Positions 10,190-48,829 of a stretch of 64,000 nt of DNA are shown in pieces. A model generated the notes under the pieces. The model saw only the letters and a program-made list of their open reading frames with translations, was not told the origin of the DNA and did not search any database. Each line of letters begins with the position of its first letter. The first letter of the stretch is position 1. Position numbers and translations under genes: made by a program. Location of the stretch: assembly GCA_903925745.1 (NCBI GenBank), contig CAIYGQ010000218.1:12274-76273 (forward strand), given 5' to 3'. Source of the DNA: an uncultured Actinomycetes bacterium (GTDB lineage: Bacteria; Actinomycetota; Acidimicrobiia; Acidimicrobiales; Microtrichaceae).

Positions 10190-10196
10190 CGGGCAC

Positions 10197-17255: not shown

Positions 17256-17338
17256 GGCTTCTGGGCAACCACTAGGGTCCGGGCTCGGGATTCGAAGCCG
17301 TGACTCGGGGCACCACTCGAGCCGGCGGGAGAGGAGGC

Positions 17339-26633: not shown

Positions 26634-29078
26634 TCAGCCCCTTCCGTGGTCGTTCCCGTTGTGGCTGCCGTTGCGTCTGCCGTCGCCCCCGTCCCGGTCA
26701 CCTCGGTCGGCCGAGGAATCGGTAGAGGTTGACGTGGAGTTGCGCTCTCGTTCGATGCGCTCGATCAGTCCCCGGACAGCGAACCCCCAGAGGTCGGCTC
26801 GTTCGGTGTCAGTGAGCGAATTGTCGTTCAGCCCGAGGGTCTTCCAGATCGCCTCGTTCTCCTTGAGGATCGTCCGAATGGAATTCGTCCAGCTGCTCCC
26901 GGGGGAGAAGGCCTTCTCCGCTGAGGCGAACCACGCCGTAGCAGGGTGGTTTCGGTGCTTGTCCTGTTCGAGCAGCCGCCGGCGGAGGCCGCCCACAGCA
27001 GAGCTGCTCGGTTCCCGGCCGGTGATCGCGAGCTTCTTCTCCCTGAGCTTCACAAGGGCGATACGGCGCAGGATCTCCGTGCGCAGGGCGTCGCTCCGGG
27101 CGATCGACAGCAGGCTCTCGGTCTTCCCTGGGTCGGGGTCATCAGCGTCGGTGCTGGTGACCGGGCGACCGGCGACGATGGGCTGTGACTCGAATCCAGC
27201 GAACAGGTCGGAGCTGTCACTGCTGAGGAGGTCGGGGTTCAGGAGGACCCGGCCGTACCCTTCGGCGCACCGTTCCCCGAGCCAGACCTCAGACGGCACT
27301 GCTGTGGGCTGTTGTCCGTTCCCCGAGTCGACGCCGTTCCGGGTCAGGACGATGCACGACCCGCGCGCCACCACCACCTGGGTGGGTTGCGGCAGGCCCC
27401 AACCCCGGTGGAAACCCTCGATCCGACGGGTCCGCATGCGGACGAGTTCGGATTCGACCGTCCACCGGTCGTCGAGCCTGAGAGCGGCCCGGAGCTTCGT
27501 TGCGAGCCCATCCGCCGTGGGGTCGAAGCTCTGCTGGGCGTTCCGGATCACCACGTCGCTCACACACCAGACCACGAGGCGATCCGTCAGGTTCGTGGTC
27601 CGAACCGTGCTCTCGGTCTCGTTCGCGTCCAGTGAACCGGGTTTGTCCACCACCTCGACGAAGACCAGTCCGTAGTCGTCCTTGGCGGCCGTACCGACCT
27701 TGTGGGAACCACCGAGTTCGTTCTTGATCGCTTCCGCTGCGTCGTGTGGGAGGTCGACGAACGCGCGGAATTCCTGTCCGGCTGCGATGGCCTCGTACGT
27801 GAAGACGCCGCCAGTCGATTCGTCTGGTCGCTGGGTGGCGTCGTCGATCGAGTTGTGCGTGGTCACCGTCATTCCGACGGTGGAGATGCGGAGCAGATCG
27901 TTTGCGCTGGGTCTGATCGATGGGTCCAGATAGCCGGACCGCACCTGCTTGGCCTGAACCTCGCTTTGTCCACCCGCCACGGTGCTCACCACTGGCGTCT
28001 GGTTGCGCTTGTTGGGTTCCTTGTGTCTCGACAGAGCGAACGGGACTGGTTCGAGACGGTTCTCCGAGGCGACAGGATTGGCGTCGCCGACCCGAAGGGC
28101 CCCCCCGGCGATCAACGCCCCGGGATCGAATCCCGACCGGCGGAGCGCCCCGCAGACGATCGGGAACAGCAGCCGCCCGGGGATGTAATCGCTGCTCTCG
28201 ACGACGTTGCCGAACGTGGTGGTCCCCACCAGCAGTTTGGTGTCGGCAACGACTGACAGGGCGACTCGACTCATCGCCGAGCTAGCAGGGGTCGTTCGAT
28301 TGCCGCCGCGGTCGGGTGCATTGGCGTCGGTGTCTTCGCGGGCCGCCCGGGCAGAGCGCAACAGGTCCTCGCGCTGCCGAGCTGCTGAGAACTTGACTTC
28401 TTCGTCGCCAGGGTGGGACTCGCCTGCGGCGGAGGTCCTCTCTGACCACACCTCGATGACGCACCGACCGAGGCCGCGCCGCCGCTTCGCGCCGATCCCG
28501 TCGACCAGTGCAGCAGCAGTGGCCAGGAACCGCGCTGCATCGACGGCCCGTTCCTCGCCCTTGACCGTCACGGTTGGGGCCCGGGCATCGTCGAGGTCCC
28601 AGACGGCGTTGAACACGGTGCCGGGCCGCCCGACCTCGATGGTCCGCAGCGTGTGCTCCGCCGCGGTCCCGGTGACCGGGTCGATCGCGGTCGATGCCCT
28701 CGTCGTCGTCAGTCCCTCCAGAGCGGTGCGATCCTCGCTGAGCTCGACCACGAGCGCGTCGCTGAGATGGCCGGGTCGGATGCTGAGCGCCGCCCGCTGG
28801 TCGGCTCGTCCGAACATCCAGCGGACGTAGTCCGACCATGGTCCCTGGTCGGTGCCACGATCGAGGCCGAAGGCGAGGCGCTCTGCGGCGTCGCGGAGGA
28901 TCCCGGTGAGGGTCTTGGCCGGGAGGAACGGCACCTCGACTGGGTCGGAATCGTCGACCCGCACCGTCTCCCGGGCGATCAGTCGGTCGACGTCACCCGA
29001 CCGGCCGGCACCCGTGCCGACGTGCCAGTCCGAGGTGAACTCCACCCAGATCGTGCCGTCCGTCACGTCGACCCCCAC
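26634..29078 (-). CDS. 814-aa multi-RAMP fusion (Cas7-Cas5-Cas11-like large subunit)
   Basis: N-terminal RAMP WHVGTGAGRSGDVD..LPAKTLTGILRDAAE. Second RAMP-like unit YIPGRLLFPIVCGALRR, then EGYGRVLL and a helical C-terminal third. 16-nt overlap with the cas10 stop. Confidence 0.65.
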   Translation of the reverse strand: MGVDVTDGTIWVEFTSDWHVGTGAGRSGDVDRLIARETVRVDDSDPVEVPFLPAKTLTGILRDAAERLAFGLDRGTDQGPWSDYVRWMFGRADQRAALSIRPGHLSDALVVELSEDRTALEGLTTTRASTAIDPVTGTAAEHTLRTIEVGRPGTVFNAVWDLDDARAPTVTVKGEERAVDAARFLATAAALVDGIGAKRRRGLGRCVIEVWSERTSAAGESHPGDEEVKFSAARQREDLLRSARAAREDTDANAPDRGGNRTTPASSAMSRVALSVVADTKLLVGTTTFGNVVESSDYIPGRLLFPIVCGALRRSGFDPGALIAGGALRVGDANPVASENRLEPVPFALSRHKEPNKRNQTPVVSTVAGGQSEVQAKQVRSGYLDPSIRPSANDLLRISTVGMTVTTHNSIDDATQRPDESTGGVFTYEAIAAGQEFRAFVDLPHDAAEAIKNELGGSHKVGTAAKDDYGLVFVEVVDKPGSLDANETESTVRTTNLTDRLVVWCVSDVVIRNAQQSFDPTADGLATKLRAALRLDDRWTVESELVRMRTRRIEGFHRGWGLPQPTQVVVARGSCIVLTRNGVDSGNGQQPTAVPSEVWLGERCAEGYGRVLLNPDLLSSDSSDLFAGFESQPIVAGRPVTSTDADDPDPGKTESLLSIARSDALRTEILRRIALVKLREKKLAITGREPSSSAVGGLRRRLLEQDKHRNHPATAWFASAEKAFSPGSSWTNSIRTILKENEAIWKTLGLNDNSLTDTERADLWGFAVRGLIERIERERNSTSTSTDSSADRGDRDGGDGRRNGSHNGNDHGRG

Positions 29079-30757
29079 AGCCCGGCCACATCGGCGAGGT
29101 CCACGATGAGTGCCGGCTTGCTCTTTGCTCCGAGCACCTCGTTCGGCTTGAGTCCGCCCAGGTCCAGGCCGCCGATCCTGGTGAGCACGGACTCGGCCGC
29201 AGCGCTGCTGATGAACCGTTGCTCACGGATCTCGCCGACCGCAGCGGCCGACACCCGACGGCGACCGGTCTTCGGGTCGACCGCAGCGAACGCGGCGATG
29301 CCCGCCTCGAGGTCCGCGACCGTCCACGTGTCACCGCTCGAGTTGCCCCCGACCAGGAACGGCCCGGCGAAGAGGCGTTTCCCCTCGCCGTCCCGGCGCG
29401 TGCTGCGGATCCGGTCGAGGTCGGCCCCCGAGGAGTCGGCGAGCATGTGGAAGTCGATCGCTGAAGGCGGGAGCGGGTCCTCCTCCTCCTTCAGGCGCAG
29501 GACGCCGCTCTTGGCGTTGGCGGTCAGCTGCTCGCTCAGTTCGTAGGCGGCGTGGAACGGGTAGTGAGGCTTGACGATGGCGATCCCGGCCTTCATGGTG
29601 AGGCCGGACTTCTCGAGCTTCTCGAGCTTGGTGTTCTCGGATGCTCCGGAGTCCTCGCCACCGTCGGCGGTGTAGCAGGTCGCAAGCGCCTCGACTGCCT
29701 TCTTGCTCCATTCGGTGAACTCTTGGATCAGGGTCTTGGTGAACCCGAGCGCCACGGTGGCGTCCATCACGAAGGTCAGGTCGTCGCCTTCGACGAGGAG
29801 GGGAATCACCGGGGTCTCCCCTCCAGCCGGAGTGACCTTGGCCAACGCCAGTGCGGCAGCGGTCTCGGTGGCGGTCGCCAGGGCAGAGGAGAAGTCCCCG
29901 TACGCCTTCCGGTACAGATCCCACTGCACATCCTCGTCGTGGGGTCTCGCCGCCTCAACGTCTCCTGCCAGGGAGAGGAACAGCGAGCCGACTCCGTTCC
30001 CGTCGGCGTGGACGACCGCCACCCATCCCACGGGCTCCGACGACCCGGGGGTGTCCCCGGACCGCACGATGCGCTCGAGCTGGTCGAGGTTCTCGGGGAA
30101 CGTCAGGACTGTCTTCTTCTCGCCCTTCTCCTCGGGCTCCCCGTGTAGACGATCGTCGAGCGTCGCCGCCAAGCTCGTCAGTGAGGTCGTCCGGTACTCG
30201 TACTGGCGGTGAGCGATCTCGGAGAGCGGACCCAGCATGGACTTGGAGTCGTCGTGCTCGGCCGGGAACGGCGAGGATCCGCAGCCGGCCACGATCGGGA
30301 TCCGCTGGAACCGGGCGGTGCTGCCACCGGGCCGGGCAGCCAGCCGGGTCGCCTCCTCGGCCAGACCGCGGATCGTCTCGGCCAGACCCTCTCGCTTCCG
30401 GATGGCGCCGGCCACGGCGAGCCCGGGCGCCTTCTCGAGCGCCCGGAGCGTGACGGCGCGGACGAGCTCACCGAGTGCATTTTCGTCGCCGGTGACGAGC
30501 GTGAACCCCGACGACGCGCCGATCAGGTCGACCGAGCCGCCACCCTTGTTGATCGTCTCGATGGCTTCATGGACCCACTCGACTGTGGCGGCGCGGAGCA
30601 GTCCCGAGGCGCCGATGTTGCAGCCGAGCCGGTTGGAGGTGCCGTAGATGTACGACTGGTTGCCGCTCGTCGAGATCAGTGCAACGTGCGTCCCGAGAGA
30701 TCCCGCTCCGGTCCGGCTGGCACTGCTGATCGAGATGTCGGTGGCTTCGCTCTCCAC
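29063..30757 (-). CDS. cas10: Cas10 (minimal, no HD domain), cyclase/polymerase palm subunit
   Basis: Palm-1 STSGNQSYIYGTSNRLGCNIGASGLL. Palm-2 VAVVHADGNGVGSLF and LLVEGDDLTFVMD at the GGDD position. MKAGIAIVKPHYPFHAAYELSEQLTANAK. No H-D dyad at the N-terminus. GGAGGAGGG lies before GTG 30757. Confidence 0.75.
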   Translation of the reverse strand: MESEATDISISSASRTGAGSLGTHVALISTSGNQSYIYGTSNRLGCNIGASGLLRAATVEWVHEAIETINKGGGSVDLIGASSGFTLVTGDENALGELVRAVTLRALEKAPGLAVAGAIRKREGLAETIRGLAEEATRLAARPGGSTARFQRIPIVAGCGSSPFPAEHDDSKSMLGPLSEIAHRQYEYRTTSLTSLAATLDDRLHGEPEEKGEKKTVLTFPENLDQLERIVRSGDTPGSSEPVGWVAVVHADGNGVGSLFLSLAGDVEAARPHDEDVQWDLYRKAYGDFSSALATATETAAALALAKVTPAGGETPVIPLLVEGDDLTFVMDATVALGFTKTLIQEFTEWSKKAVEALATCYTADGGEDSGASENTKLEKLEKSGLTMKAGIAIVKPHYPFHAAYELSEQLTANAKSGVLRLKEEEDPLPPSAIDFHMLADSSGADLDRIRSTRRDGEGKRLFAGPFLVGGNSSGDTWTVADLEAGIAAFAAVDPKTGRRRVSAAAVGEIREQRFISSAAAESVLTRIGGLDLGGLKPNEVLGAKSKPALIVDLADVAGLWGST

Positions 30758-30866: not shown

Positions 30867-31979
30867 TCAGGGGAGTTCGTTCTCGGCCTCCGGGATGAGT
30901 CGTCGGATGCTCGATCGCATGGTCGCCGACGCCGGTCGCATGTGCGCCAGGTCGTCCCGCAGCGCCTTGAGGTCGCGGACGAGCGCCACCACCTTGGGTT
31001 TCGAGTTGCGGAAGTAGCGTCCGAGTTGGGCAGAGATCTCCGACAGCTCCCACTCCCCGGGGGATCCTGTGAGGTGCCGGCTGACGTGCTGCTGGCCCGA
31101 AACCCAGTCGACCAGTCCGCGGCGCGTGGCCTCGATCTCGGGCCAGGTGGACCGCAGCGATGCCAACCACAGACGGCGTGTCACCTCGCTGTTATCGGCG
31201 TACCGGAGGTGGCCGACGAACCTGCCGGAGTCCCACCAGTCGCCGGTGCCGCGGACCCATTCGTCCTCGAGCGCGCTCGAGGATCTGGTCTGCAGGACTC
31301 CGATGGGAGTGACCCGATCGGGTTGGCGCCCCTCGGGTTGCAGATGGTCGTCGATCGTCTCCGGGTCGCCGTCCCACTGGTCGACCAGACGGTCGGCCAG
31401 GTCCAGGTCGAACCCGGCGAGCTCGGTGATCGCCGCCGACATCCACTCGTCGACATGTTCACTCTGCTGGCGGAGTCGGCCGTGCACGTACGCAGCGGTG
31501 TCGGGGCGTTCGAAGACCCGTCGGAACGGCACCACGGCGAGCCGGGGGCCACCGGGGTGCAAGCCGGGTGGCGCCCCGATCACGTACCGGGGGCCGTTGC
31601 GGCGATCCGAGTAGCGGGCGACCTGTTCGACGACCTCGAGCAGGGCCGGCGTGGGCTGGTCGTGGTCGCAGATGAGCTCCACGAGGCACCCGTCCGCCAT
31701 GGCCGACAGGTCCTGGACCGACGGCGCTACGACGGAGGAGTCGATCTCCGGGCCGAGGATCGACCGCACCTCGTGGTGGTCGGTGGCCGTCCACAGGCCG
31801 GGCGAGTCGATCCGGATGGTCGGGAGTCTGGCTGCCGAGCTCACGGCCTCGACCACCTCGGTGCGCGGTCGACCTGGTGGCACCTCCACGACGACCGAGG
31901 AACCCTGGCGGACCTTGGCGGTGATCCCGGCCGTCCACCGGCGCGGACCCGGGAGCTGCCAGGCCCAGGGCTCACTCAT
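30867..31979 (-). CDS. HEPN-domain protein (R-x4-H) with unassigned N-terminal domain
   Basis: C-terminal [13 protein letters not shown], the same LRxDLAH signature as the 17339-19354 protein. Start overlaps the stop of the giant ATPase by 8 nt. Confidence 0.55.
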
Positions 31980-34900
31980 CGGTCGGTCGGTGGGTATCGG
32001 GGATGGCCGAGACGAGTGCTCGCGTGAAGTCGTCGATCGAGCAGTGCTCGTCGACCAGCGTGGCGAAGCCCTGACGGAGGGACTCGGCGATCTTTGCGAC
32101 CTCGGTCGGGTCGGCTTCGGAGTCCTCCAGCGAGATGCTGACCCAGTCGTCGAACTCGTCGGACTCCACCGAGTCGAGGGTCACCAGCGCCTCGAGCCCC
32201 CGGTGTTCGAGCGAACCCGGTCGGATCCCCAGGTCCCCGACCGTCCAGCGCGCATCCGCAATCGACTGCTGCACGTGAGCCGTCGAGGCCGCCGGGTTCT
32301 GCGAGGACGCGAACGCAGTGATCCACTCGACCACCGGCTCGTGCCACCCGCCCGTGACCTCGATGATCTCCTCGACGCGGTGACGGGCCGGGTGGTCGTC
32401 GAGCCACAACGCCAGGTCCGGTGCACTCCAGCGCTGGAGCCAGAGCACCTGGGTCTGGTCGTCGTGGGGGAGCGTCCCGAACGCCTGAACGTCGGCCAGG
32501 ATGATCGACCGAGCCCGCTTCTCGGAGAGGAGTCGGAGCGCCGGAGCCGGGTCGTCCCCCGGGCGGAGCCGGCACCAGTTCACGGCGTCGTCGCTCGGAT
32601 CGACCTGATCGGGATGGCGGACCTCGACGAGCCGTTGGCCGAGCGGTTCGACCAGGATCTCCAAGGTTGACGGAATCCGCTCGATCCCCGAAGCGACGCC
32701 ACCCACGACGACGTTGCAGCGCTGCTCGAGCAGGTTCCGGGCCGACGAGCGCGTGATCGGTGATCGCGTGTCGTCCGGGAGGAGGAGTCGGACCGCAGCG
32801 GGGTCGTGCTGCGGTTCGGAATCGAACTCGACCGGGTTGGTATAACGGTCGGCCACTTCGTCGTACGTGCCGAGGGTGTCGAGGATGTTGAGGGTCCGGA
32901 GGCCGAATCCGCCGGAGGGCGAGCGGCGCAGGATGCCCAGACCGACCATCTCCTCCAGCAGGCCTGCCACCTCGTCGAACCCGGATGTGGCGAAGTACTG
33001 CGGCCACGTCTGTCGGATGTCGGTTGCGATCTCGAGGGGAGTGACCTCGGCGCTGGCTCCCTTGTGTCCCGGGCTCCTCAGCGCGTCGTGGGTACGGAGC
33101 GCGAACAGGTAGGCGAGCACCCGGTACCGCTTGTCCAGACTGAGGGTCCACTCGAAGCGTTGGCGGATCTCGCTCCGGACCTCGATGTCGGCGAGCACCC
33201 GGTTGACCGCAGCGGTGTTGATCACGATCGGAGGGGTGCCCGCCTGTCGGGGAACGCTCTTCATGTGCTCGGCCAGGCTCGAGCCGAGCAGCTGGAGGAT
33301 GGAGGCCTGGTAGTTGCCGAACGCCGCGAGTCGGTAGGGGAGCTCGGGTGACTCCCATCGGAATCCGAGGCAGCTGAAGAGCCGGTCGATCAGCTCGTAG
33401 GCGTTGAGGGGGGACAGCGCCGCGACCCGCACGGGCCGCTGCGCCAGGTGGGCCAGCGGTTGCTTGGCGTCGCGCTCGAACCGCTGCACCTGGTGCAGAC
33501 CTGCGAGCACACACTTGAACCGGCGCTTCGTCTCCTGCATCAGACCGCGGATCCGCTGGGTCTGGGGGTACTCCGACGCCCGGTCGTTGTCGAGGAAGCG
33601 GTCACACTCGTCGAGCAGCAGGTAGATGTTCTGGCCCGGGTGGTCGTCGAGCCACGTGAGCACGGCTGCCTTGAAGTCGTCGAACTGATCGGACTTCTTG
33701 GGACTCGGGCTCGGCGTGGTGACCCCGTGTCTCGCCAGCTCGCCCAGCGCGACCTTCCACACCGTCGGTCCGCCGCCGACCTCTCCCGCCTGTGCGTAGT
33801 TCAGGTCGATCATCACCGCCACGTGACCCTGGTCGTTCGCTCGGCGCTGGACCTTGCGCAGCAACGCCGACTTGCCGAGCTGGCGCCCGCCGTAGACGAA
33901 CGACGGCCCTTGGGGGCTGAGCAGGGACGTGAGTTCCTCCTGCCGTCCGAAGAACACCTCCTTGGGGAGTTCCCCCTGGGCGTTCGGGCGGAAGGGGTCG
34001 AGGCTGTTGAACGGGAGCACCGCCCGCATCAACTGCTCCCACCTCCGCTTCTCGTCGGGCGCGGTGGCACACACCCATGCGACCGTCGCCGGGTCGATGA
34101 CCGCCACCGGCCGGGGGGACTCAGCGGTTCGACGACGTTCGGCGAGGTCGACCCGGTCGTGGGCGCCGATCACGGTCGGTGTGATCACGAGGACGGGCTC
34201 ACTCGAGCGCTCGTCGTTGATCGAGTTGTCCAGGTCCCGCGTCGAGGTGAACGTGTGGACGATCACGACCCGGTAGTTCCCGCCCGCCTCGGATCCGAAG
34301 TCGGGGACCAGCGACCTACCCTCGGGGGTTGCGCTGCGCACCTGGAACCAGAGGCGTCCGCGACCGGACCACGGGCCGGTCGGCAGCGCCGTCACGGTTC
34401 CGAGCGTCAGGCCGAGGTGCGGGAGCAGTGCCTCGAGCGCTGCGATTCCCTCTGCGTCGGGACGTTGCGCGGCGCCGGCCGAGAGCAGTCCGGCGGAGGC
34501 GTCGAACAGGGTCCAGCCGTCGAGCAGGTCGCTGGAGGTCTTCCGCCACGACGGTTCGATCCACGGCAGGTCCCCGAAGGCGTTCTCGAGCTGCGTCTCG
34601 ATCTGCGCGGCGTCAGGGTCGATTCGCTCGAGCAGCTCGTTGAAATGCTCGACTCCGAGGTGGTCGGCGGTGGGTGCCGGGATGGTTCCGTCGTTGTCCT
34701 GCGCGATGAGGTTGAGTTCCACGGCCGCGCCGTAGTCACCGCGCTCGATGGCTGCATCGACCTGGCGGCGGGCATCCTCATCGAGCTGTCCCCCCAGATC
34801 GTGGATCGGGTTGCTGACCCGAGCAGCCTCGAGCTCGCCGAGCAGCCGCCGGGCCTGCTCGACGGCTTCGACGGCACGGCGGAGGTCGGACTGCTCGGCG

Positions 34901-37659
34901 AGTTCCACCGCCTCGGCCAGGAGGAACTCGACCTCGGTCGTGCTGGTGGGGTCCAGTGCCAGACCGCTCGAGACGACGGCGAGGTGGTCGGCCGTCTCCT
35001 GGCGGTCCCGATCGAGCCGGTCGCGCACGCGGCGCACCTGATCGTCGAGGTCCTCCCGCCGCTCCTCGCCGATCAGGCCGACTTCGATCATCAGTTCGGC
35101 GGAGATCACCTCGAGCGCCTCGACCCGCTCCCGGAACAGCTCCTCGCTGGCAACCTCGCCGAGGTACCGCTCGATGTCGTCCGCTCCCGGCCGTCTGACG
35201 ATTGCGCCGTCGGCATCGAATGCGACTCCGGGCGCACGCAGCAGATGGAGAACCGGGTCGCTCTCGGTCGCCGAGGGCGGTCTGCCGACCATGCGGATCA
35301 GGTGGCCGGCGGCAGATCCCCAGCGGGCAGCAGAGCCGGCCTGGTGGTCGAGTTCCTCGGCGGCCTGCTCCCGGAGTTCCGAGACGCGGGCCAGCAATCT
35401 CGAGTAGTGGTCGTCGTTCGCCGACTTGGCATCGACCAGTTCGGTTGCCCGGAGGACCTGCAGCGCAAGGTCACGCGCCTCCTCGATCTTCCCGGTCAGA
35501 CGCGCCCGCGCCTTCGCCTCGATTCGGCGGAGGCCGTGCTCGTCGATCTCGTCGCAGGTGTCGTCGATGAGGTTGCCGATCTGCTTCCGGTCGGCTAGCG
35601 AGTCGGCGATGTCCTTCGCTCGGCGGTACGAGTCCCGGTCACGCTTCTCGGCGTGTTCGAGCGCGAGATCCACCATCTCGCAGACGGTTCCGGTGTTCAC
35701 GAGGCGTTGCCAGACCAGCGTTGCGAGCTGGTACACGAGTTTCTGGTGGGGAGCCTGCTCGCGGAAGATCCGGAGTCGCTCCGCCGATTCCCCCAGCAGA
35801 CTGGCTGCGGCATCGCCTGTTCCCGCCGTGTCGATCAGCACCGGGACTCCGTAGTTCGCGGCCTCCCGCAACGCGACGAGCAGATCGTTCGTCCTCGGCG
35901 AGCCCACTGACCGGGCCACGGCCCAGTCCTCCATGGCCGGGACCCGACTCAGGGGCGAGCGGGCCATGTGGAGTGCGGTTGCGGCCAGCGCCAGCGGCAC
36001 CGCGAAGTCGGGCGTCTCCACCAGATCGACCTGGCGAGCGAGCCGCTCAGCCGCAGTTCGGGCGAGGTCGGCGGTCCCGCCGTGACGCGGATCCTGATCG
36101 CGGAGATTCGTAGCGCTCGCCGCGAACTCGAGCACCGCCTGCTCGGTCGAGTGGAGCGGGGCGAAGGTTGCGGCCAGCATCAGTTCGTCCCGCTCTACGA
36201 GCTCGTCGAGCAACTCGTTCACAGGGCGGACGTCGACATGTGCCGACGGCGAACCGGCATTCGTGTCGGACACACGTTCGGGTTCGGGTTCGGGTTCGGG
36301 TTCGGGTTCGGGTTCGGGTTCTGGTTCGGGTTCTGGTTCGGGTTCTGGTTCTGGTTCTGGTTCGGGTTCTGGTTCGGGTTCTGGTTCGGGTTCTGGTTCC
36401 AGCATTGTGGGGTCGACGGGGTGCTTGTCGGACCCGGCTGGGTTATCGAGCAGGAGCTGACCCTCCGCTGCGGCGTACACGATCCAGCGGAGTTCGACCG
36501 GGAGCTGCGCCGCAATAGTCACCATCGGGTTGTCGGGGTCGACGGCCTCCAGCGCGGCGCTGATGGTGAGGAGGTGCGATGCGAGCACCCTGTCTGATTC
36601 CTCGACCGGCGGCCATCCGTCACAGAGCCGCTCAGCCGTCGACCTGATCGTTGCGAGGTCCTGTTCGAAGTCGGTGACGGTGGATCGAACGCCGGCCAGC
36701 CGACGCAACGCCTCGAGGTCGGGATCGACTACGGCGGCCGATGCCGCCGCGGCCTCGGCGAGGTCATCCACGGTCGTCTCCTCCGTCGCGTCGAGTCCGA
36801 GGTCCGATGCGAGCGAGTTGAACGAATCACGCAGCAGCTTCAGGTCCAGGATCAGCTGCTCCTCGGGAGCGCGGCCGGCGGCAAGCGCTTCGCTGGCCGC
36901 CTCGACGCTCGCTGCGGCGATCTCGATCCGATCCTGGAGTTGGGCGAGTCGATCTTCGAGGGAGAGGCCGTCAGACGCTCCAGTCCCGGTCGGCGTGCTG
37001 CTCATGAAATCATCGAAGTCACCGCGATCGAGCAGCTGTTTGATCTCAGGGGCTGCGGGCAACCCACGGAGCACGCATGCACGCAGGCCGGCACGAAGAA
37101 GTTCATCGCTCATGCGTTCCCGTGCTGGTGGGAGCGCCTTCACGAGATCGTCGAGCGTCGGGCTGGCGGCTCGGTCACCCAGGAGCGGCACCATGAGTTC
37201 GAGCACGGGTGCGATGACGAGATCGATGGCGAGGTCCTGTTCCCTGAGCTCGTTGCAGCGATCTCTCAGCCGGCCGGCGGATACTGCGGACAGCTTCTGC
37301 AGGGGTTGCCCGAGCAGGTGTCGAGTGATCCCCCGAAGAGTCGGCTCGCTGAACTGAGCCGCCCCCAACCGAACATCTGCGTTGGAGAGCGATGCGAACT
37401 CCAGCCAGAACTGGTCCACGTCCTCGGCTCGGCCGAGCTCCGCTGGCCCTTCGGGATCCTGCGTCTGCTCGCCGTCGTCCATCGCGTCCGTCCCCTCCCG
37501 AGCGGTGCTCTCGATCAGATCCTCGCTGCGGATCAAGATCAATTCAACGGGATGCACCCAGCCCGCGTCCAGACCGCGCCCCACGAATTCAGTACGAGCG
37601 GTTCCGATGTCACCGTCCGGACCGGAACGAGGCGAGGGCGCCGGCGGCTGTGCCGTCAC
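31972..37659 (-). CDS. Giant (about 1,895 aa) STAND/ORC-Cdc6-like AAA ATPase with helical N-terminal region
   Basis: [26 protein letters not shown] (Walker A) and [12 protein letters not shown] (Walker B). Also VLAGLHQV and winged-helix-like [14 protein letters not shown]. About 1,100 aa of helical N-terminus contain (EP)20. The start could instead be GTG 37584, since ATG 37659 overlaps the E1 gene by 50 nt. Confidence 0.7.
36280..36399 (-). repeat. 20 x 6-bp microsatellite (gggttc/tggttc) encoding (EP)20 in the giant ATPase
   Basis: Counted directly on the sequence. In frame, it reads GAACC[C/A] on the minus strand. Confidence 0.9.
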
Positions 37660-38533
37660 CGAGCGGAGCCACCGGTGCGACTCGGTGCTCTCCGCAGACG
37701 GGACACTCGGGGGAGCCGAGCACCCGCAGCCACACCGACTGGGGTGCGAACTGCCCCGGGGTCTCGCCGAAGTTGCCGGGGAACCACTCCCACCCGGCGC
37801 TCGTGGAGATGATGCACATGGAGTGCCGGGCGATCGCGGTCAGGGTGTGCGTCCCGACCGGCGACGACGGGCCACCCAGCAGGCCGATCGACAACTTGGC
37901 CGCCACGCTGACGACAGTGAGGATGTCCGCACCGAGCGCCGTCTCGGCCGCCAGCCGTCCGGTGCCGTAGTCCTGCTCGCCCCGCAGGTGCGCACCGTCG
38001 GCCCCGTGCGAGGTCGCCCGCTGCCCGGTCGCGCAGGCCCAGCACGGTGTCGCGCCCGGGATGTTGAGCACGATCTCGCCGGCGGCAGCGCCGCGGTAGA
38101 GGGCGCAGTGCACGACCGGTCGACCGATCGCAGTGGCCCGGTGGTCGAGCGCGCCCTGCGCGACCGGGTCGTCGAGCGCAGCGACCACCAGGTCGACCTG
38201 CTGGAGCAGGTCGGCGAGCTGGAGCTCGAGCAGGGCGTCCAGGTCGCAGTGGTGGCCCGTGACGCGGGTGCCCGGGTCGATGCGGAGCAGGTGGTCGGCC
38301 AGAGCGTCGACCTTGGGCCGCCCGCAGTCCTCGCCGGTGTAGGTGCTGCGCGACAGGTTGGGGGCCTCGACCACGTCGGGGTCGACCAGGGTGAACGACC
38401 CGACGCCGTGCCGGGCGAGCACGTCGCTCATCGTCGATCCGACGCTGCCGCACCCGACGACGAGTACGTGACGGTCGCTGAGTGATGGGACGAGCCCGGT
38501 GATCCGAGCGGTGCGGCTGTCGGGTGCGTTCAC
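37610..38533 (-). CDS. E1-like adenylating enzyme (ThiF/MoeB/UBA family)
   Basis: [37 protein letters not shown] nucleotide-binding fold. Two CxxC pairs (PCWAC; CPVCG). GTG 38533 gives a GTGA overlap with the JAB stop. Confidence 0.8.
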
Positions 38534-39474
38534 GATGCCTCCTGGTCGGATGGTGTCGGATCCGGACGGGTCGGTTCGGTCTCGGTCGGATCGGTCTCGG
38601 TCGGTTCGGCGGCTGCCGGCGCCAGGTCGAGCAGTTCGAGGGCCGCGACGAGCGCACCGACTCCGGTCGCGGTTTTCGTCGACGCCGGAACCGGCAGCGG
38701 GAACGGAGTGAGACCGTCCCCGTGATCCAGTGCCACGAGCGGGGCGGCGAGCGGGAAGTCGTGGCTGAGCAGCACCCAGACCTGCGGAGCGCCGGACCCG
38801 GGGTCGAAGCAGCACCCGAGCAGGTCCACCCCGTTGACCGAGACGGGCTCTGCGCCGACCCGCCGCCACCCGAGTCGGGCGGTGATGCGTCGGCAGGTCC
38901 GCTCCACGGGGATCACCCGGACCGCAGCAGGTCGGGAGAGCCGCAGCGTGCCGGCGCCATCCAAGCGCCCGACGAAGCACGACATCCGACCGTGCGGCAG
39001 CCGGACCTCGTGGTCCCCGAGCGGCCGGTCGTCCACGATCTGGGTGACCACCGGCATGCACACCCAACCCAGGTGCGGGTTCCGCTCGAGCAGGTGGGTG
39101 GTGACCTGGAGGTCAGGTCCGCTCAACCGGTTGAGGCCGTTGGGGTGTGAGTGCACGACGCCGACCAACCGCAGGTCGAGCGACGACTCGAGCTCGACGA
39201 CACGATTGACGAGTTGCTCCGATGGCACGTACGACACCTCGGTGGTCGCAGCGTGTCGATCCCACTCGAAGTGGGTGACCGAACGCGCGTTGACTGGCCG
39301 CAACAGGGCACCACCCTGCTCCGGGTCCGGTGCGGCCAGCCGCCGGTCGATCCGCCGCAGGGTCAGGTCGGTGAAGGTCGGCACGATCGGTGTGACCGAC
39401 AGGTCCGTCGGCTGCCGGCGGGCGCGACGGGGACGGCCGGTGCTGGGGGTGCGTCGGGAGCTCACGTCGGTCAT
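38530..39474 (-). CDS. JAB/JAMM metallo-isopeptidase
   Basis: Complete JAMM motif: VVELESS..GVVHSHPNGLNRLSGPD (E, HxH, S-x2-D). ATG 39474 gives an ATGA overlap with the upstream stop. Thr/Pro/Glu-rich tail. Confidence 0.8.
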   Translation of the reverse strand: MTDVSSRRTPSTGRPRRARRQPTDLSVTPIVPTFTDLTLRRIDRRLAAPDPEQGGALLRPVNARSVTHFEWDRHAATTEVSYVPSEQLVNRVVELESSLDLRLVGVVHSHPNGLNRLSGPDLQVTTHLLERNPHLGWVCMPVVTQIVDDRPLGDHEVRLPHGRMSCFVGRLDGAGTLRLSRPAAVRVIPVERTCRRITARLGWRRVGAEPVSVNGVDLLGCCFDPGSGAPQVWVLLSHDFPLAAPLVALDHGDGLTPFPLPVPASTKTATGVGALVAALELLDLAPAAAEPTETDPTETEPTRPDPTPSDQEAS

Positions 39475-40379
39475 GCGCTGAAGGGGGCCGGCAGATCGCG
39501 TCGGATGAACTCGATGTAGATGCACCACTTGGCCAGGGCGGCGTGGACGTCCCGGATCGACGGGTGCCCTCGGAACCCGGGTCGGAGGCACACCACCGTG
39601 GCGCCGTTGAGCAACTGGAGGTGGTGCCGGTGACCGGCCAAGTGGTCCAGGTTGGGCGCCAGGCAGTAGGCGAACCACTCGTTCCTGCGCGACGGCTCGC
39701 GGCGGATCAGGAACACGTACTCGGCCTCGGTGAACACGTCCGGGCGGAGCTCCATGACCCACCCACGGCTCTCGTCGTGCCAGTACCAGCTGCAGAGGTT
39801 GTCCGGATCGATCGCTCGGATCGCCCGGATGTCGTCGACCGGAGGGGCGGCGAACGTCTCCCGGGGGAGGGACGTGGTCGCCTCGACGTGTCGGCCCGAC
39901 TCGCCGAACCTGATCTTCCCGTCGGGCGACGTCGTCACCTCCCGTGCGGACGCCCGCCCTTGCTCGGCGTCGCGGATCGCCTGGATCATGGCAGCCATCT
40001 GCTCGGGGGTCTGGCTTGCGAACCGCTCGGTGGGCAGCGACGACACCGGGTGGTCCTGGTGCTCGGCTCCCACGGCCGATCCGGCGTTCCCAGCGGGACC
40101 CGACCCACGGTTGGCCCAGACGGGAGGTGTGGTGATGCGGCCACGGTCGACCACGGGCGCGTCGGTGAGCGGCACCAGACCGTCGCCAGCCGACTCCGAC
40201 GTTCTGGTCTCGTGGGCACCCAACGGCGCGACACCCGTCCGCGGCTGGTCGTCCGGCGACGTCCACACCTCCACGCCGTTCCGGTCGAGCGAGGGGACGA
40301 GGTCGATCACGGGCAGCGGCGGTGTGCGCTCGGCTGCCGTGTCGGTGGGGGGAGTGGGTCGGGTCGGTCGGGTGCTCAT
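39471..40379 (-). CDS. Putative prokaryotic E2 (UBC-like) protein with disordered N-terminal half
   Basis: The C-terminal ~130 aa contain GHRHHLQLLNGATVVCLRPG, a His then Cys spacing like prokaryotic E2 families as I recall them. Sits at the E2 position of E2-JAB-E1 cassettes. Confidence 0.5.
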   Translation of the reverse strand: MSTRPTRPTPPTDTAAERTPPLPVIDLVPSLDRNGVEVWTSPDDQPRTGVAPLGAHETRTSESAGDGLVPLTDAPVVDRGRITTPPVWANRGSGPAGNAGSAVGAEHQDHPVSSLPTERFASQTPEQMAAMIQAIRDAEQGRASAREVTTSPDGKIRFGESGRHVEATTSLPRETFAAPPVDDIRAIRAIDPDNLCSWYWHDESRGWVMELRPDVFTEAEYVFLIRREPSRRNEWFAYCLAPNLDHLAGHRHHLQLLNGATVVCLRPGFRGHPSIRDVHAALAKWCIYIEFIRRDLPAPFSA

Positions 40380-40434
40380 GGGTGCTCCAGTGGGTTGACG
40401 GTGGGTTGTGACATCAGGGGTGCGGGTGTGGTGG

Positions 40435-41187
40435 TCATCGCCAGGCCTCGATCAGGAACCACACGCTCAGTTCGCCCGTCCGGGCACGGCCGCTCGCAGA
40501 CACCACGCCCAGCAGTGCTGGATCGAGTCCGGCGGTGGCGGCGCCGAGCGCTGCCGCTGCGGCAACGGGCGCCAGCCCTGCAGCCACCACCGGTGCGACG
40601 ACCCCGCCGAGGGACACCCGCGCCGCTGATGTGGCGATCCGAAGGGCGCGTCGGGTGCGCTCCGAGGGAGGTGTCTCCGGGATGAGTGCTGCGAGTTCGG
40701 TCGGGTCGATGGTCTGGACGTCGGCCTTCAACGACCCGTCGGGGAGTTCGTGGGCGACGAACAGGCGGTCGAACTCGACACCGAGCTCGACCAGCCGCTC
40801 GAGCTTCGCCACGACGTGGTCCGGCATCACGAACTGCTGCTGGCGCAGTTGCGGGTCGGTCTCGGCAGCGGTGACCACCCACTCGGTGCGCTTCCCGTCC
40901 GCACGCAACGGAGCGCGACCGGCCAGTCCGGGCTTGGCCGTCGGTCGAGCGGTGCTGCGGTCGGGCGACACATGGGCCGCGACCGGACCGCCGACACGGA
41001 GTCCGATCGGTCCGTCGGGAACGGGGATCACGCCGACGGGGGTCACGAGTCCCCCGGAGCGGGCCATGACGGCGGTCGCCCGCCGCTCCAGGGCCGAGCC
41101 CGTGGCCCCGACCGACGTCGAGTGCGACACGACAGGAGTGGTCCGCTTCGAGGGCGGTACTGCCGGGAGGGTGGAGTCGGTTCCCAC
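40435..41187 (-). CDS. Hypothetical protein with Ala/Gly-rich hydrophobic C-terminal segment (first or second gene of the conjugation cassette)
   Basis: 250-aa ORF with C-terminal LGGVVAPVVAAGLAPVAAAAALGAATAGLDPALLGVV..WFLIEAWR. No C-terminal Gly-Gly and no obvious beta-grasp signature by eye. Confidence 0.4.
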   Translation of the reverse strand: MGTDSTLPAVPPSKRTTPVVSHSTSVGATGSALERRATAVMARSGGLVTPVGVIPVPDGPIGLRVGGPVAAHVSPDRSTARPTAKPGLAGRAPLRADGKRTEWVVTAAETDPQLRQQQFVMPDHVVAKLERLVELGVEFDRLFVAHELPDGSLKADVQTIDPTELAALIPETPPSERTRRALRIATSAARVSLGGVVAPVVAAGLAPVAAAAALGAATAGLDPALLGVVSASGRARTGELSVWFLIEAWR

Positions 41188-41190
41188 TCG

Positions 41191-41784
41191 TCAGTCCCCA
41201 CTCGCTCCGAACAGCAGCATGAGGCCAACCGCCCCGACTGCGAGACCGATCAGGACCATCACCGCCAGCGCGAGCAGGCCAGCGGCCACGCTGAGCGCCA
41301 GGGGTACCGCCAGGACTGCGGCAGTGACGTCGAGCAGCCCGATGGCGACGATCACCCGGAACGGGGCCTGCTGGAAACCCCGGGTCACCGCAGCGCATCC
41401 GACCAGTCCGGCCGCAGCCGCCAGTGCGGCCCACGGTCCCCAGCGGTCGACTCCCCAGAACGTCGCGCAGGTGCGGAGGAACTCTGCGACGGGGACGGGG
41501 AGCGCGAGCACCCACTGCATCGCCGGGCGGTGGGCAGCGGCGACGACGACGGCGAGTCCGAGTGCGAGCCAGCTCATCCAGGAGAGGCTCCCGAGTTCGA
41601 TGGGAACGTCGTCGGATCGCACGGAGCGGTCGAGGATGTCGCGAAGCCCGTGACGGTGTGCCGGCGCTGCGGCAGACTCGACGAACTTCTGGGGAGCGCG
41701 GCGCGGGACGGGGGTGCTGGTTGGCAGTCCCAGGTCGCGGCGTACTCGGTCGATCGGGTGCACGTGGTCTCCTGCTGTCGTCAC
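41191..41784 (-). CDS. Multi-pass membrane protein
   Basis: Hydrophobic segments WMSWLALGLAVVVAAA, PWAALAAAAGLVGCAAV and VIVAIGLLDVTAAVLAVPLALSVAAGLLALAVMVLIGLAVGAVGLMLLF. Ends in GASGD. 3-nt gap to the next gene. Confidence 0.5.
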   Translation of the reverse strand: MTTAGDHVHPIDRVRRDLGLPTSTPVPRRAPQKFVESAAAPAHRHGLRDILDRSVRSDDVPIELGSLSWMSWLALGLAVVVAAAHRPAMQWVLALPVPVAEFLRTCATFWGVDRWGPWAALAAAAGLVGCAAVTRGFQQAPFRVIVAIGLLDVTAAVLAVPLALSVAAGLLALAVMVLIGLAVGAVGLMLLFGASGD

Positions 41785-41954: not shown

Positions 41955-43340
41955 GTGGAGCCGTTGGGCAGCCCAGCAGCAGAGGTATCGGGCGCAGATG
42001 ACCCGTCGTCGAGGCACGTGTGGGCGCTCCTCGGGAACAGCGTGGAGCCGGTCGTCTACGGGCTGGTCGCCCTGTCCCCGGCGTCGGTGACGTTCGTGGT
42101 GACGAAGGATTCGAAACCACTGGTCCGGCAGGTGCTGCAGCGGGTGCGGAGGTCCGGGGTTGCACTCGACGGCAACGCCGTGGAGTCGGTCGTCGTGGAG
42201 CCGGACGATCCGGCTTCCATCCGACGCGAGCTCGAGGAGCACTTCGCCTACGAACACGAGCGCCGGGGTGACCTGCTGTTCGGTGGCGGAACGACCGTGA
42301 TGAACGTGGTCGCCGCCTCGGTCTGGTCGGTGCAGCACAGTGACTCGGGGAGCAGGAGTGATCCGGAGTACCGCCAGTGGTACCTGCCGGCCCGCGGGTC
42401 GCAACTGCTGAGCCCGAGCGGCGACCGTATCGACCTGAGGGCTGCGTTCCCCGGGATTGACCAACTCGTCAAGTCCGCTGCGCCAGAACAGTCCAGATGG
42501 GAACCGGAGGCGGACGAGTGGCTCGGACGGGCCACACCTCCCGGTGTCGGTCCAGCTCAGCCCTGGTCCGCGGATTCCCACGTCGGTGCAGTGACCGAGC
42601 TGGTGGTCGCGCTGCTCAGTCGGGTCGAGGACAAATCCTGGAAGAACAACGATTGGCTCAAGGGGCGGCTGGGGACCGCCTTCGACGAGAGCGACTGGAC
42701 TCCGGATCCTCAGCAGGTGTCCAAGGACCGACTCGCAGGCTGGCGCCGGGGGAAGGCCCTCGAACTGGTGACCTTCGCGCTGGTGGCACGTCGGGTCCAC
42801 CAGCTGACCAGCGCGCCCCGTGCCCGATCCGGATCCGTTGCGCCCGAGGTGCTCCGGAACCTGTCCGTCAATCGACTCAAGAAGGGGAGGAAGCCGGCGA
42901 CGGTCACGGAGCTCGATGTGGTCGTGCGGAGCGGTCCTCGCTTCACGCTCTTCTCGTGCGGGGTCGAGGGGGGAGTCCGTCAGGCTCCGCTCGTGAAGAA
43001 GCTCGCCGAGGCCGAGCGTCGCTCCAAGCAGTTCGGTGGCTCCGAGGCGAGGTCGGTGCTCGTCTGGTGGCGTTCGCCCGACAGAGGACGCCCGGCTCGC
43101 AACAACAAACCCGCTCAACGGGTCGGATGGAACATACCGAAGGACATGAGTTCGGCAGCATCTGAATCCCGCAACATGATGGACAATGCGGGCATCAACG
43201 CTCTCGGCAACCACGTCGCTGTTGCGCTCGGCGAGTTCTTTGCGAGGCGGGACAAGGAGAGCATTCGCGAGACCGTGGAGGATCCGGGAAGAGTCCCCAA
43301 ACGTGTCCGAGAGATCATCGAGGGGAGCGTCTTCCCGTGA
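41955..43340 (+). CDS. CARF + restriction-endonuclease-fold protein (Card1/Can2-like)
   Basis: N-terminal LLGNSVEPVVYGLVALSPASVTFVVT and GGGTTVMN CARF loop. C-terminal ALELV..ELDVVVRSGPRFTLFSCG..QFGGSEARSVLV resembles the Card1/DUF1887 nuclease half. Confidence 0.6.
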   Translation: MEPLGSPAAEVSGADDPSSRHVWALLGNSVEPVVYGLVALSPASVTFVVTKDSKPLVRQVLQRVRRSGVALDGNAVESVVVEPDDPASIRRELEEHFAYEHERRGDLLFGGGTTVMNVVAASVWSVQHSDSGSRSDPEYRQWYLPARGSQLLSPSGDRIDLRAAFPGIDQLVKSAAPEQSRWEPEADEWLGRATPPGVGPAQPWSADSHVGAVTELVVALLSRVEDKSWKNNDWLKGRLGTAFDESDWTPDPQQVSKDRLAGWRRGKALELVTFALVARRVHQLTSAPRARSGSVAPEVLRNLSVNRLKKGRKPATVTELDVVVRSGPRFTLFSCGVEGGVRQAPLVKKLAEAERRSKQFGGSEARSVLVWWRSPDRGRPARNNKPAQRVGWNIPKDMSSAASESRNMMDNAGINALGNHVAVALGEFFARRDKESIRETVEDPGRVPKRVREIIEGSVFP

Positions 43341-47967: not shown

Positions 47968-48829
47968 ACCCAAGTCCGTATCGGTGGTGATCAACGCGTA
48001 CGTGATCTCTCGTTCACTCAGTGAATCACGCCGTGTCAGTTTCAGTCCGTATCGGTATTTCAGGGGCCCCTGAACGAGACCGAAAGGCTGAACATGGGAA
48101 CCAAGAGTTTCAGTCCGTATCGGTATTTCAGGGGCCCCTGAACCCGCCATAAGGCCTATCGTTGGCGACGGTAGTTTCAGTCCGTATCGGTATTTCAGGG
48201 GCCCCTGAACGGAGAGAGCCCAGCTCGACTTGTGCAGGCAGTTTCAGTCCGTATCGGTATTTCAGGGGCCCCTGAACAAGCCGGTGTCGGATGAGGTTCG
48301 CAAGAAGAGTTTCAGTCCGTATCGGTATTTCAGGGGCCCCTGAACCTGAAAGGCAAAAAATGGAGACACTGGAGATCCAGTTTCAGTCCGTATCGGTATT
48401 TCAGGGGCCCCTGAACACAGGCACGGTTCCCTCGCCGTAAACGAGATGTTTCAGTCCGTATCGGTATTTCAGGGGCCCCTGAACCAAGGGCCCAACTAAG
48501 GAGCACCCCATGAGCACGTTTCAGTCCGTATCGGTATTTCAGGGGCCCCTGAACGAACGGACAGATCCCTCGTGGATCACCCTTCCTGTTTCAGTCCGTA
48601 TCGGTATTTCAGGGGCCCCTGAACGTTCAGAGCACAGAGGAACGTAGACCCCTATAGTTTCAGTCCGTATCGGTATTTCAGGGGCCCCTGAACAGATCCT
48701 CTGAAGGGTAGAGCGCTGCTCCCCGTTTCAGTCCGTATCGGTATTTCAGGGGCCCCTGAACCAGCGAATACCTGGTGGGGACCGGCATCTTCGTTTCAGT
48801 CCGTATCGGTATTTCAGGGGCCCCTGAAC
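47968..48829 (-). CRISPR. CRISPR array 1: 12 identical 37-nt repeats plus one degenerate terminal repeat
   Basis: Plus-strand repeat gtttcagtccgtatcggtatttcaggggcccctgaac. Starts at 48039, 48107, 48174, 48241, 48309, 48380, 48448, 48518, 48588, 48657, 48725 and 48793. Degenerate copy at 47968-48004. Spacers are 30-34 nt. Orientation is minus: the leader lies on the right, the degenerate repeat on the left, and the reverse-complement repeat ends in ..ACTGAAAC. Confidence 0.97.

Follow-up and report, generated by a model that had tools for sequence, protein, structure and literature searches.

We analysed a stretch of 64,000 nucleotides from an uncultured Actinomycetes bacterium (GenBank assembly GCA_903925745.1, contig CAIYGQ010000218.1, positions 12,274 to 76,273; G+C about 69%), hereafter the window, and identified within it a pair of adjacent genes, encoding a giant P-loop ATPase and a 370-residue partner protein, that lies between a cassette of ThiF/E1 and JAB genes and the cas10 gene of a type III-D CRISPR locus. 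The genes constitute a self-contained module, coupled in translation, and the pair is found again, without cas genes, in many unrelated genomes, its nuclease partner being replaced in a modular fashion. We favour, with a confidence only a little above even, the reading that the pair is an autonomous conflict or defence module of Actinomycetota, combining a nucleoside triphosphate (NTP) switch with an RNase, and is not an ancillary of the type III system. It belongs to a widespread, unnamed two-gene family of STAND-plus-effector type, with a distinctive split architecture, for which Pfam, PADLOC and NCBIfam hold no model. An earlier reading of the same DNA, made from its letters (the sequence-only reading), had proposed a sensor-switch plus RNase pair that was either an independent system nested in the CRISPR locus or a new type III ancillary module; our analysis favours the pair and the independent system, and lends no support to the ancillary module.

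The ATPase gene and its partner

The features of the two genes, in window coordinates, are as follows.

31972..37659, minus strand: giant STAND/ORC-class NTPase gene (open reading frame list, third-position G+C frame signal, homologues)
34393..37659, minus strand: N-terminal ~1,090 residues of the ATPase, fast-evolving, predicted helical or coiled-coil, putative sensor or scaffold
36280..36399, minus strand: (EP)20 linker, ATPase residues 421-460 (Tandem Repeats Finder, period 6, 20.7 copies; exactly 20 by regular expression)
34000..34362, minus strand: small alpha/beta domain (residues ~1100-1220) before the NTPase, with conserved VPxFGS and an invariant Asp at residue 1189 (model confidence > 90)
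33070..33954, minus strand: P-loop NTPase and helical lid, residues ~1236-1530 (invariant columns, Foldseek matches)
33931-33954, minus strand: hhGRxxE motif
33868-33891, minus strand: Walker A, GGRQLGKS
33601-33621, minus strand: Walker B, LLLDECD
33478-33507, minus strand: motif with an invariant Arg, downstream of Walker B
32824..33072, minus strand: winged-helix region after the lid, residues ~1530-1612 (model helices, then a beta-hairpin at 488-498)
31975..32790, minus strand: C-terminal alpha/beta domain (residues ~1624-1740) and helical domain (residues ~1746-1895), with conserved TGGW (model; 'TGGWP' in alignment A3)
30867..31979, minus strand: 370-residue partner gene (open reading frame list; ATG overlaps the ATPase stop by 8 nt)
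31215..31979, minus strand: partner residues 1-255, predicted inactivated AAA+/STAND-like module with an N-terminal WxLPGP motif (model, Foldseek, column statistics)
30870..31208, minus strand: partner residues 258-370, HEPN-like four-helix domain (column statistics, helix topology, sub-threshold HEPN_Swt1 matches)
30939-30965, minus strand: ALRDDLAHM (residues 339-347), with the partner's R341-D-D-L-A-H346 motif

The large open reading frame (ORF), of about 5.7 kb, is intact and a real gene, far beyond chance, since full-length relatives of 1,750-2,300 residues are common, its homologues reach E = 4e-275, and the third-position G+C (GC3) signal keeps its frame along the entire length; the possibility of a disrupted ORF, which the sequence-only reading had raised, is thereby answered. 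Begun at 37659 it encodes 1,895 residues, as previously described, from a GTG and not from the ATG that was the sole factual error of that description. There are three in-frame start candidates: GTG 37659, from which the ORF would share 50 nt with the upstream E1 gene; GTG 37584, which follows the E1 stop by 26 nt; and ATG 37482, which has GGGAGG in front. Because codons 26-59 already have coding-like composition (GC3 0.82), the start should lie at or upstream of 37584, and the true start is probably 37659 or 37584. At the other end, the ATG of the partner gene (31979) and the TGA of the ATPase gene (31972-31974) share the string ATGAGTGA, the 8-nt overlap recognised in the first reading, which had also found the (EP)20 linker.

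Direct sequence searches of Pfam, NCBIfam, PADLOC and the PDB with both proteins returned EP-repeat noise and weak P-loop matches only, and when profiles of the full partner, of the ATPase and of its N-terminal region were searched against the PDB, only coiled-coil noise came back. The ATPase has no above-threshold family model in Pfam or NCBIfam and no PADLOC match at E <= 0.05; its sub-threshold matches include AAA_16 (18 bits, cut-off 32.6), nSTAND6 (14 bits, cut-off 27.7), ATPase_2 and Sll1717. The C-terminal 806 residues have more than 100 homologues at 27-36% identity, many of them with precomputed AAA_22, AAA_16 or nSTAND1 assignments, and the conserved core spans residues ~1100-1670, reaching ~1800 in many homologues.

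In an alignment of 65 ATPase sequences, the arginine of hhGRxxE, the G-G-R-x-L-G-K of Walker A, the D-E of Walker B and a downstream Arg are all invariant. The corresponding motifs in the window are FFGRQEEL (residues 1236-1243), GGRQLGKS (1257-1264) and LLLDECD (1347-1353), so that the P-loop motifs reported near residue 1200 are present, at a position closer to 1250. Structure prediction by domain, one of the checks proposed earlier, gave confident models for the ATPase core and for the partner. The AlphaFold model of ATPase residues 1090-1895 has a predicted local distance difference test score (pLDDT) of 89.8 and a predicted template-modelling (TM) score (pTM) of 0.78, and its best Foldseek matches in the PDB are SSO1545 (2fna, E = 8.8e-9, target TM 0.58) and PAB2304 (2qen, target TM 0.62), followed by ORC1/Cdc6, and then Avs3, NRC2/4 and CED-4/Apaf-1. 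Both 2fna and 2qen are whole-chain matches and are themselves ATPase plus winged-helix proteins, in agreement with the winged-helix-like segment that had been noticed in the letters. The invariant motifs and the structural matches of the model bear out the earlier assignment to the ORC/Cdc6-STAND type, and the large protein is predicted to be an active P-loop NTPase of this class. Most ATPases in the loci surveyed below are 1,750-2,300 residues long, and the window protein is therefore a typical member.

The N-terminal ~1,090 residues have no match in Pfam, NCBIfam or PADLOC and can be aligned with relatives over residues ~550-1000, at only 15-20% identity; 55% of them are A, L, E, D or R and, used as a profile against the PDB, the region matches coiled-coil and helical-bundle chains only, from which two lines of evidence we predict a helical structure. 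In the small alpha/beta domain that precedes the NTPase, columns G33, R80 and D100 of the 65-sequence alignment A3 are conserved. We considered this domain as an Avs-like PD-(D/E)xK nuclease, and provisionally rejected the assignment since a conserved (D/E)xK is absent from the alignment.

Homologues of the partner are hard to detect: a word-indexed search found two or three relatives, even with a five-sequence profile, and an exhaustive HMMER profile search was needed, which recovered 795 cluster representatives at E <= 1e-3, mostly of 360-400 residues. A metagenome locus search with the partner alignment yielded no confirmed match. In an alignment of 71 partner sequences D160, R341 and H346 are invariant, and W7, L9, P10, G11, P34, D191, W241, G244, W271, R286 and E311 nearly so. 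The AlphaFold model of the partner (pLDDT 93.5, pTM 0.90) has whole-chain Foldseek matches to AAA+ proteins, namely clamp-loader and RFC subunits, RuvB, FtsH and Apaf-1. The loop at its Walker A position lacks GK[ST] and carries instead a conserved Pro (P34, in 70 of the 71 sequences), the Walker B Asp is retained in only about half of the family, and R158 (58%) and D160 (100%) open the helix after strand 147-151, which corresponds to the arginine-finger position of AAA+ proteins. Because of the AAA+ matches, the eroded Walker A and the half-lost Walker B Asp, the first ~250 residues are predicted to be an inactivated AAA+/STAND-like module. The sequence-only reading had called the small protein a HEPN protein, which the evidence below supports for its last third, and had missed the AAA+-like two thirds.

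For residues 258-370 of the partner, the model predicts four main helices (263-294, 312-323, 328-345 and 352-368), with R341-H346 straddling the boundary between the third helix and the loop that leads to the fourth, and E311, at the start of the second helix, is E or D in all 71 sequences. HEPN domains are characterised by an R-x4-6-H dyad at the end of helix 3, with a polar residue, typically N, D or H, after the catalytic Arg, and by a conserved acidic residue opening helix 2 (PMC3710099); the partner has the dyad and the polar residue, and the order of helices in its model and the place of E311 agree with this description. HEPN_Swt1 of Pfam was matched by 16 of 38 isolated C-terminal domains (best E 0.0096, all sub-threshold), with further sub-threshold matches to HEPN_Apea, Ribonuc_2-5A and pEK499_p136. 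The C-terminal domain is thus very probably a HEPN domain of Swt1/Abi2-like type and a predicted RNase that keeps its R-x4-H dyad, in line with the HEPN-type end first proposed from the ALRDDLAHM motif.

Position 342, directly after the catalytic Arg, is N in 63 of the 71 sequences, H in five and D in three, and both the window and its 90%-identical relative have D. The window's HEPN domain might for this reason be catalytically weakened and serve mainly as an RNA-binding or dimerisation element. R341, H346 and E311 are nevertheless all kept, and D falls within the active repertoire recorded in the HEPN survey (PMC3710099), so that we regard a weakened domain as improbable.

Linkage and partner exchange in other genomes

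We investigated the genomic neighbourhoods of both genes. In a 90%-identical relative (the contig carrying P0001, hereafter the P0001 contig) the pair likewise lies beside cas10, and the genes follow one another as in the window, in the order 192-250-286-JAB-E1-ATPase-partner. Among distinct relatives the nearest is a contig of a Microthrixaceae metagenome-assembled genome (MAG), in which the partner is 50% and the ATPase 55% identical and the 8-nt overlap is likewise present; downstream of the pair, no cas genes were found, and the opposite strand there carries an Hsp70-like gene. A partner-family gene is directly downstream in five of six contexts of more distant ATPase homologues, and the partner directly follows the ATPase in loci L001 and L003-L007. 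In L003-L005 the N-terminal region of the ATPase is seemingly a separate upstream gene of 813-1,019 residues. BLASTP of the N-terminal 1,089 residues of the window's ATPase against these separate genes of L003 and L004 gave no significant similarity, and we did not retain the idea that the window protein is a fusion of a three-gene system, which has position as its only basis.

A scan with a single nine-residue peptide pattern, GGRQLGKSA, identified at least 581 confirmed loci in species-representative genomes and 577 in metagenomes. From the two collections 160 loci were fetched, 145 of them with at least 1.2 kb of downstream sequence. The HEPN partner is present immediately downstream of the ATPase in 94 of the 145. 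In a further 27 its place is taken by a beta-CASP metallo-beta-lactamase of ~700 residues, with Lactamase_B, Beta-Casp and RMMBL domains, a nuclease of the RNase J/CPSF type; in this sub-family (including L048:12421-14523, L053, L080, L083, L068 and L037) the N-terminus of the partner is coiled-coil. Another 17 loci have no downstream partner and carry a giant tandem helicase upstream, followed in 16 by a protein of ~774 residues, and the remaining seven have neither a HEPN, a beta-CASP nor a helicase partner. HEPN, metallo-beta-lactamase and helicase partners are the only recurrent neighbours of the ATPase. Linkage of the two genes elsewhere had been named beforehand as a point on which the original proposal could fail, and a survey of neighbourhoods with and without cas genes as a way to check it; the genes prove to be linked in many unrelated genomes, and the proposal survives.

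The helicase sub-family (for example L020:1-6638 and L027:1-6701) encodes a protein of at least 1,450 residues with Helicase_C_2 plus DEAD/Helicase_C modules. In most of these loci the protein after the tandem helicase is ~700-860 residues long and has no family match, and in L027 and L063 it is then followed by a DUF2397 gene. Another architecture was observed in Proteobacteria: on plasmid NZ_CP054617.1 of Azospirillum oryzae (L168, 502307-512077) the ATPase core lies inside a 3,256-residue 'RNaseH domain-containing protein', which is followed by a 525-residue AAA ATPase and a DUF6035 protein.

Searches of the 160 fetched loci by phmmer found no relatives of the window's Cas10, Cas7 or JAB proteins, these divergent proteins being the queries, so that distant cas genes could escape; E1 was found once, as an incidental gene 10 kb away on the opposite strand. 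Cas1 and a CRISPR array occur among the fetched loci only in L049 and L135, which are one contig present in both collections (an Actinomycetota MAG contig, 2326-11450), and here an array and the type I-C genes for Cas3, Cas5d, Cas7, Cas4 and Cas1 lie immediately downstream of the pair, which is thus seen, independently, for a second time beside a CRISPR system, and one of another type. Other neighbours of the family are restriction-modification, DndB, NERD, UvrD-like, SNF2, CHAT/caspase and DUF2397 genes. DUF2397 is the JetA component of type III Wadjet. The ATPase is also plasmid-borne, in Streptomyces, cyanobacteria, Alphaproteobacteria and Salinibacter, under the labels 'hypothetical', 'ATP-binding' and 'AAA family ATPase'. 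We did not find a phage-encoded relative of the ATPase, and literature searches limited to open-access text returned no paper describing the ATPase-partner family.

The family is very common on the chromosomes of Streptomyces, Nocardia, Mycobacterium, Lentzea and others, as might be the case were it a housekeeping or regulatory STAND system of Actinomycetota without an immune role, acting for example in RNA turnover or in the control of development, its HEPN domain directed at specific cellular RNAs. STAND proteins do include transcription regulators, and no defence model matches the pair. Such a role is nonetheless unlikely, in our judgement, given that the partner is swapped among a HEPN protein, a beta-CASP nuclease and a helicase, that the N-terminal region of the ATPase is highly divergent, that the family occurs on plasmids of distant phyla, and that its neighbours include restriction-modification, DUF2397 and CRISPR genes. 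Partner swapping, a divergent N-terminus, plasmids and defence-type neighbours are typical traits of conflict systems and not of housekeeping functions.

Known systems and the surrounding CRISPR locus

The closest published concept, as an analogy, is the nSTAND2 two-gene system, in which the gene after an active STAND gene encodes an inactive STAND module with a variable effector, most often HEPN or GT4, fused to it, and for which a hetero-oligomer of active and inactive modules was predicted (Kaur, Iyer, Burroughs and Aravind, eLife 2021, PMC8195603). The window pair has the same operon order and logic, with a first gene for a predicted active STAND protein with a winged helix and a second for a dead module with a variable effector. 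In contrast, nSTAND2 proteins are of ~600 residues, have tetratricopeptide repeats (TPRs) and come from Gammaproteobacteria, whereas the family described here has an ATPase of ~1,900 residues and a 370-residue partner without TPRs and is centred on Actinomycetota; its alternative partners are beta-CASP nucleases and helicases, and not GT4. Homology of the partner to nSTAND2 was rejected, as hhalign of our alignment A4 against the published nSTAND2 alignment gave a probability of 0.2% and E = 0.31.

Avs systems likewise combine a nuclease effector with a STAND-class NTPase whose non-catalytic region is large and variable, and Avs3 is among the structural matches of the ATPase core. An Avs protein, however, is one polypeptide that carries its effector at the N-terminus and its sensor at the C-terminus, whereas here the effector is a separate protein and the variable region is N-terminal, and no PADLOC Avs model matched the pair at E <= 0.05. 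BrxC/DUF499 (HmaC) and BrxB of BREX and BREX-related systems also resemble the pair, in that an inactive STAND-like protein accompanies an AAA+ ATPase of ORC/Cdc6 type that has a winged helix. Many DUF499 ATPases bear an N-terminal Swt1-type HEPN domain, whereas here HEPN is on the inactive subunit and not on the ATPase; the methyltransferase and PglZ partners of BREX are not conserved beside our family, and no DUF499 or BREX match was found in the window pair (Pfam, PADLOC). PrrC and RloC are NTPase-coupled HEPN RNases that stay latent until a phage cue; they combine an ABC-type ATPase and HEPN in one polypeptide controlled by a restriction-modification partner, as opposed to the STAND/ORC-type ATPase on a separate giant protein seen here. 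Their HEPN assignment and catalytic R and H are given in the HEPN survey (PMC3710099).

With Csm6/Csx1 the partner has in common only a HEPN R-x4-H domain encoded inside a type III CRISPR locus. Its N-terminal domain matches AAA+ proteins and not CARF, as the sequence-only reading had anticipated in stating that the pair lacks a CARF domain; Pfam, PADLOC and NCBIfam searches found neither CARF nor SAVED in either protein. In the loci surveyed the family lies almost entirely outside CRISPR loci and has no recurrent association with cas10 or type III genes, co-occurring with them, apart from the window, only in the 90%-identical relative.

The locus around the pair contains the following features, the neighbours being those originally described.

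29063-30757, minus strand: Cas10 (PADLOC Cas10 1e-76, Cas10d 8e-48)
19312-20151, minus strand: Cas6
37610-41784, minus strand: five-gene cassette directly upstream of the ATPase (197-residue, 250-residue, 302-residue, JAB and ThiF/E1 genes)
37610-~38560, minus strand: ThiF/E1 gene (Pfam 1e-32; PADLOC E1-E2 models 1e-30; partial NCBIfam '6A-MBL cap2_3')
38530-~39489, minus strand: JAB deubiquitinase-like gene
41955-43340, plus strand: CARF-PD-(D/E)xK type effector
43337-45466, plus strand: CARF-type effector
45463-47493, plus strand: CARF-HD type effector
51928-53106, plus strand: CARF-type effector
20153-21388, minus strand, and 17300-19354, plus strand: CARF-type ancillary candidates
48038-48831 and 58141-58577: two CRISPR arrays with the common 37-nt repeat GTTTCAGTCCGTATCGGTATTTCAGGGGCCCCTGAAC
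49285-51233, plus strand: reverse transcriptase gene and cas1 (RVT_1 4e-19; cas1 7e-62)

The type III-D effector module downstream of the pair, on the same strand, comprises Cas10, a Cas7-Cas5 fusion, a double Cas7, a Cas7 with an insertion, and Cas6. Cas10 is short (564 residues) and lacks the N-terminal HD motif; its palm 1 motif is VHADGNGVG and its cyclase motif EGDD, not GGDD. The window holds four to six CARF-type candidates (two CARF-PD-(D/E)xK, one CARF-HD, one 'CARF_HEPNnew_CARF' and two weak Csx1-like), which suggests that this Cas10 may still make cyclic oligoadenylates (cOA). The large type III-D locus that surrounds the pair is therefore already equipped with canonical cOA-responsive effectors.

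Several further observations concern the island as a whole. The reverse transcriptase gene overlaps the start of cas1, forming a reverse transcriptase-associated adaptation module, and between cas1 and the second array a 685-residue protein (53201-55258, plus strand) has two P-loop modules (Pfam AAA 5e-30 plus AAA_lid_6), with weak PADLOC matches to IetA, mad8 and TRIP13. A 957-residue protein (13302-16175, plus strand) has a weak FtsK/SpoIIIE match, a hint that the CRISPR island may lie on or near an actinomycete conjugative element. Near-perfect 15-nt tandem repeats of five to six copies occur at 23705-23794 and 7945-8024, both within coding regions, one of which is the gene for Cas7 with an insertion. 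No family match was found for the 197-residue, 250-residue and 302-residue genes upstream of the ATPase, and PDB sequence searches with the 302-residue gene, a candidate E2, and the JAB gene gave no match. The order of the cassette resembles that of Ubl-E2-JAB-E1 operons, and its co-orientation with a type III-D cas10 may deserve separate study.

Its position makes the pair a candidate for a CARF-independent type III-D ancillary, in which the Cas10 complex or its product would activate the STAND ATPase and thereby turn on the HEPN RNase. The cas10 gene starts 109 nt downstream of the pair and is co-oriented with it in one apparent operon, the arrangement is repeated in the P0001 contig, and Cas10 keeps its palm motifs without an HD domain, so that signalling outputs matter. 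That contig, however, is 90% identical and hence not independent evidence, while the next relative, at 50-55% identity, has no cas gene downstream. Relatives of the window's Cas10 and Cas7 were found by phmmer in none of the 160 scan-derived loci, and the one CRISPR contig among them adjoins type I-C genes. Pfam, PADLOC, NCBIfam and Foldseek reveal no CARF- or SAVED-like sensor in either protein, and the locus already encodes four to six CARF-type effectors. We therefore consider an ancillary role very unlikely.

The pair could alternatively form one system with E1 (ThiF), JAB and the three small genes, with ubiquitin-like conjugation regulating the STAND ATPase or being directed by it. The tight junction speaks for this, the E1 stop either overlapping the longest ATPase ORF or standing just upstream of GTG 37584, and so does the gene order retained in the P0001 contig. 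That near-identical relative is, however, the sole co-occurrence: JAB was found in none of the 160 loci, the single E1 is distant and on the opposite strand, and ATPase-partner pairs elsewhere are complete operons. A single system of this composition is, if anything, a shade less probable than an ancillary role. We give equally little credence to a composite of these ideas, in which the type III-D locus captured the STAND-HEPN pair and the E1/JAB cassette as a CARF-independent output or regulatory arm of the cas10 operon, the trigger of the ATPase being, for example, an activated Cas10 complex or a conjugation event and not a phage protein.

The position of the pair between the E1/JAB cassette and cas10 is best explained as defence-island clustering and not as dependence on Cas10, and the adjacency of the family to CRISPR is most likely incidental. 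Several points weigh against an autonomous defence module with a switch and an RNase. We infer its defence function from architecture and context, and no defence model of Pfam or PADLOC matches the pair. Regarding the RNase, the window has D where 89% of the family has N at position 342; the HEPN-family matches are all below curated thresholds; the top PDB profile match, to the HEPN2 motif of Cas13a, falls short of significance (E = 0.2); the fold was judged by the order of helices in the predicted model and not by three-dimensional superposition; and in the full-chain Foldseek search the AAA+ part outweighs the rest. That the partner docks through its dead AAA+ module is proposed by analogy, and the Cas10/Cas7 result depends on divergent queries, as stated above. 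Finally, from the E1/JAB cassette through cas6 all genes are co-oriented with tiny gaps, and co-transcription of the pair with cas10 is likely. Because this stretch looks like one transcription unit in both the window and the P0001 contig, regulatory or functional cross-talk with the CRISPR locus is conceivable, and this is our main caveat.

Proposed mechanism and significance

Under the autonomous-module reading that we favour, the NTPase would act as a nucleotide-dependent switch. The variable, predicted helical N-terminal region of the ATPase would sense an invader-derived cue, its divergent surface being the likely recognition site, and an NTP-driven conformational change or oligomerisation would recruit or rearrange the partner through the dead AAA+ module. 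The clamp-loader delta' subunit, and the inactive STAND proteins of BREX (BrxB) and of nSTAND2 systems, provide models for such docking. HEPN domains brought together in this way could form an active RNase site, and the resulting RNA cleavage would lead to growth arrest or abortive infection. Elements of this scheme are familiar: fusions of Swt1/Abi2-clade HEPN domains with ATPases of the AAA+ or STAND kind are a known theme of conflict systems, as is an active STAND protein paired with an inactive STAND-HEPN protein (PMC8195603).

If the locus had instead captured the pair and the E1/JAB cassette as an arm of the cas10 operon, this would represent a new wiring of innate and adaptive immunity. 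For CRISPR biology the pair carries a caution, in that a HEPN gene directly beside cas10 need not encode an ancillary effector of the type III system.

If the module is a defence system, a large unnamed family would join the STAND/NLR-like immune repertoire, with more than 1,100 loci recovered through one peptide pattern. Most of them are in Actinomycetota, where defence systems have been little explored. The layout of the module is unusual, as a separate effector protein is proposed to plug into the switch via a dead AAA+ module, and the effector varies across the family, a HEPN RNase giving way in some loci to a beta-CASP nuclease or a helicase. The family may therefore offer a natural setting in which to ask how nucleotide switching is coupled, through an inactive ATPase subunit, to the activation of a nuclease, a question that BREX BrxB and the nSTAND2 systems pose as well.

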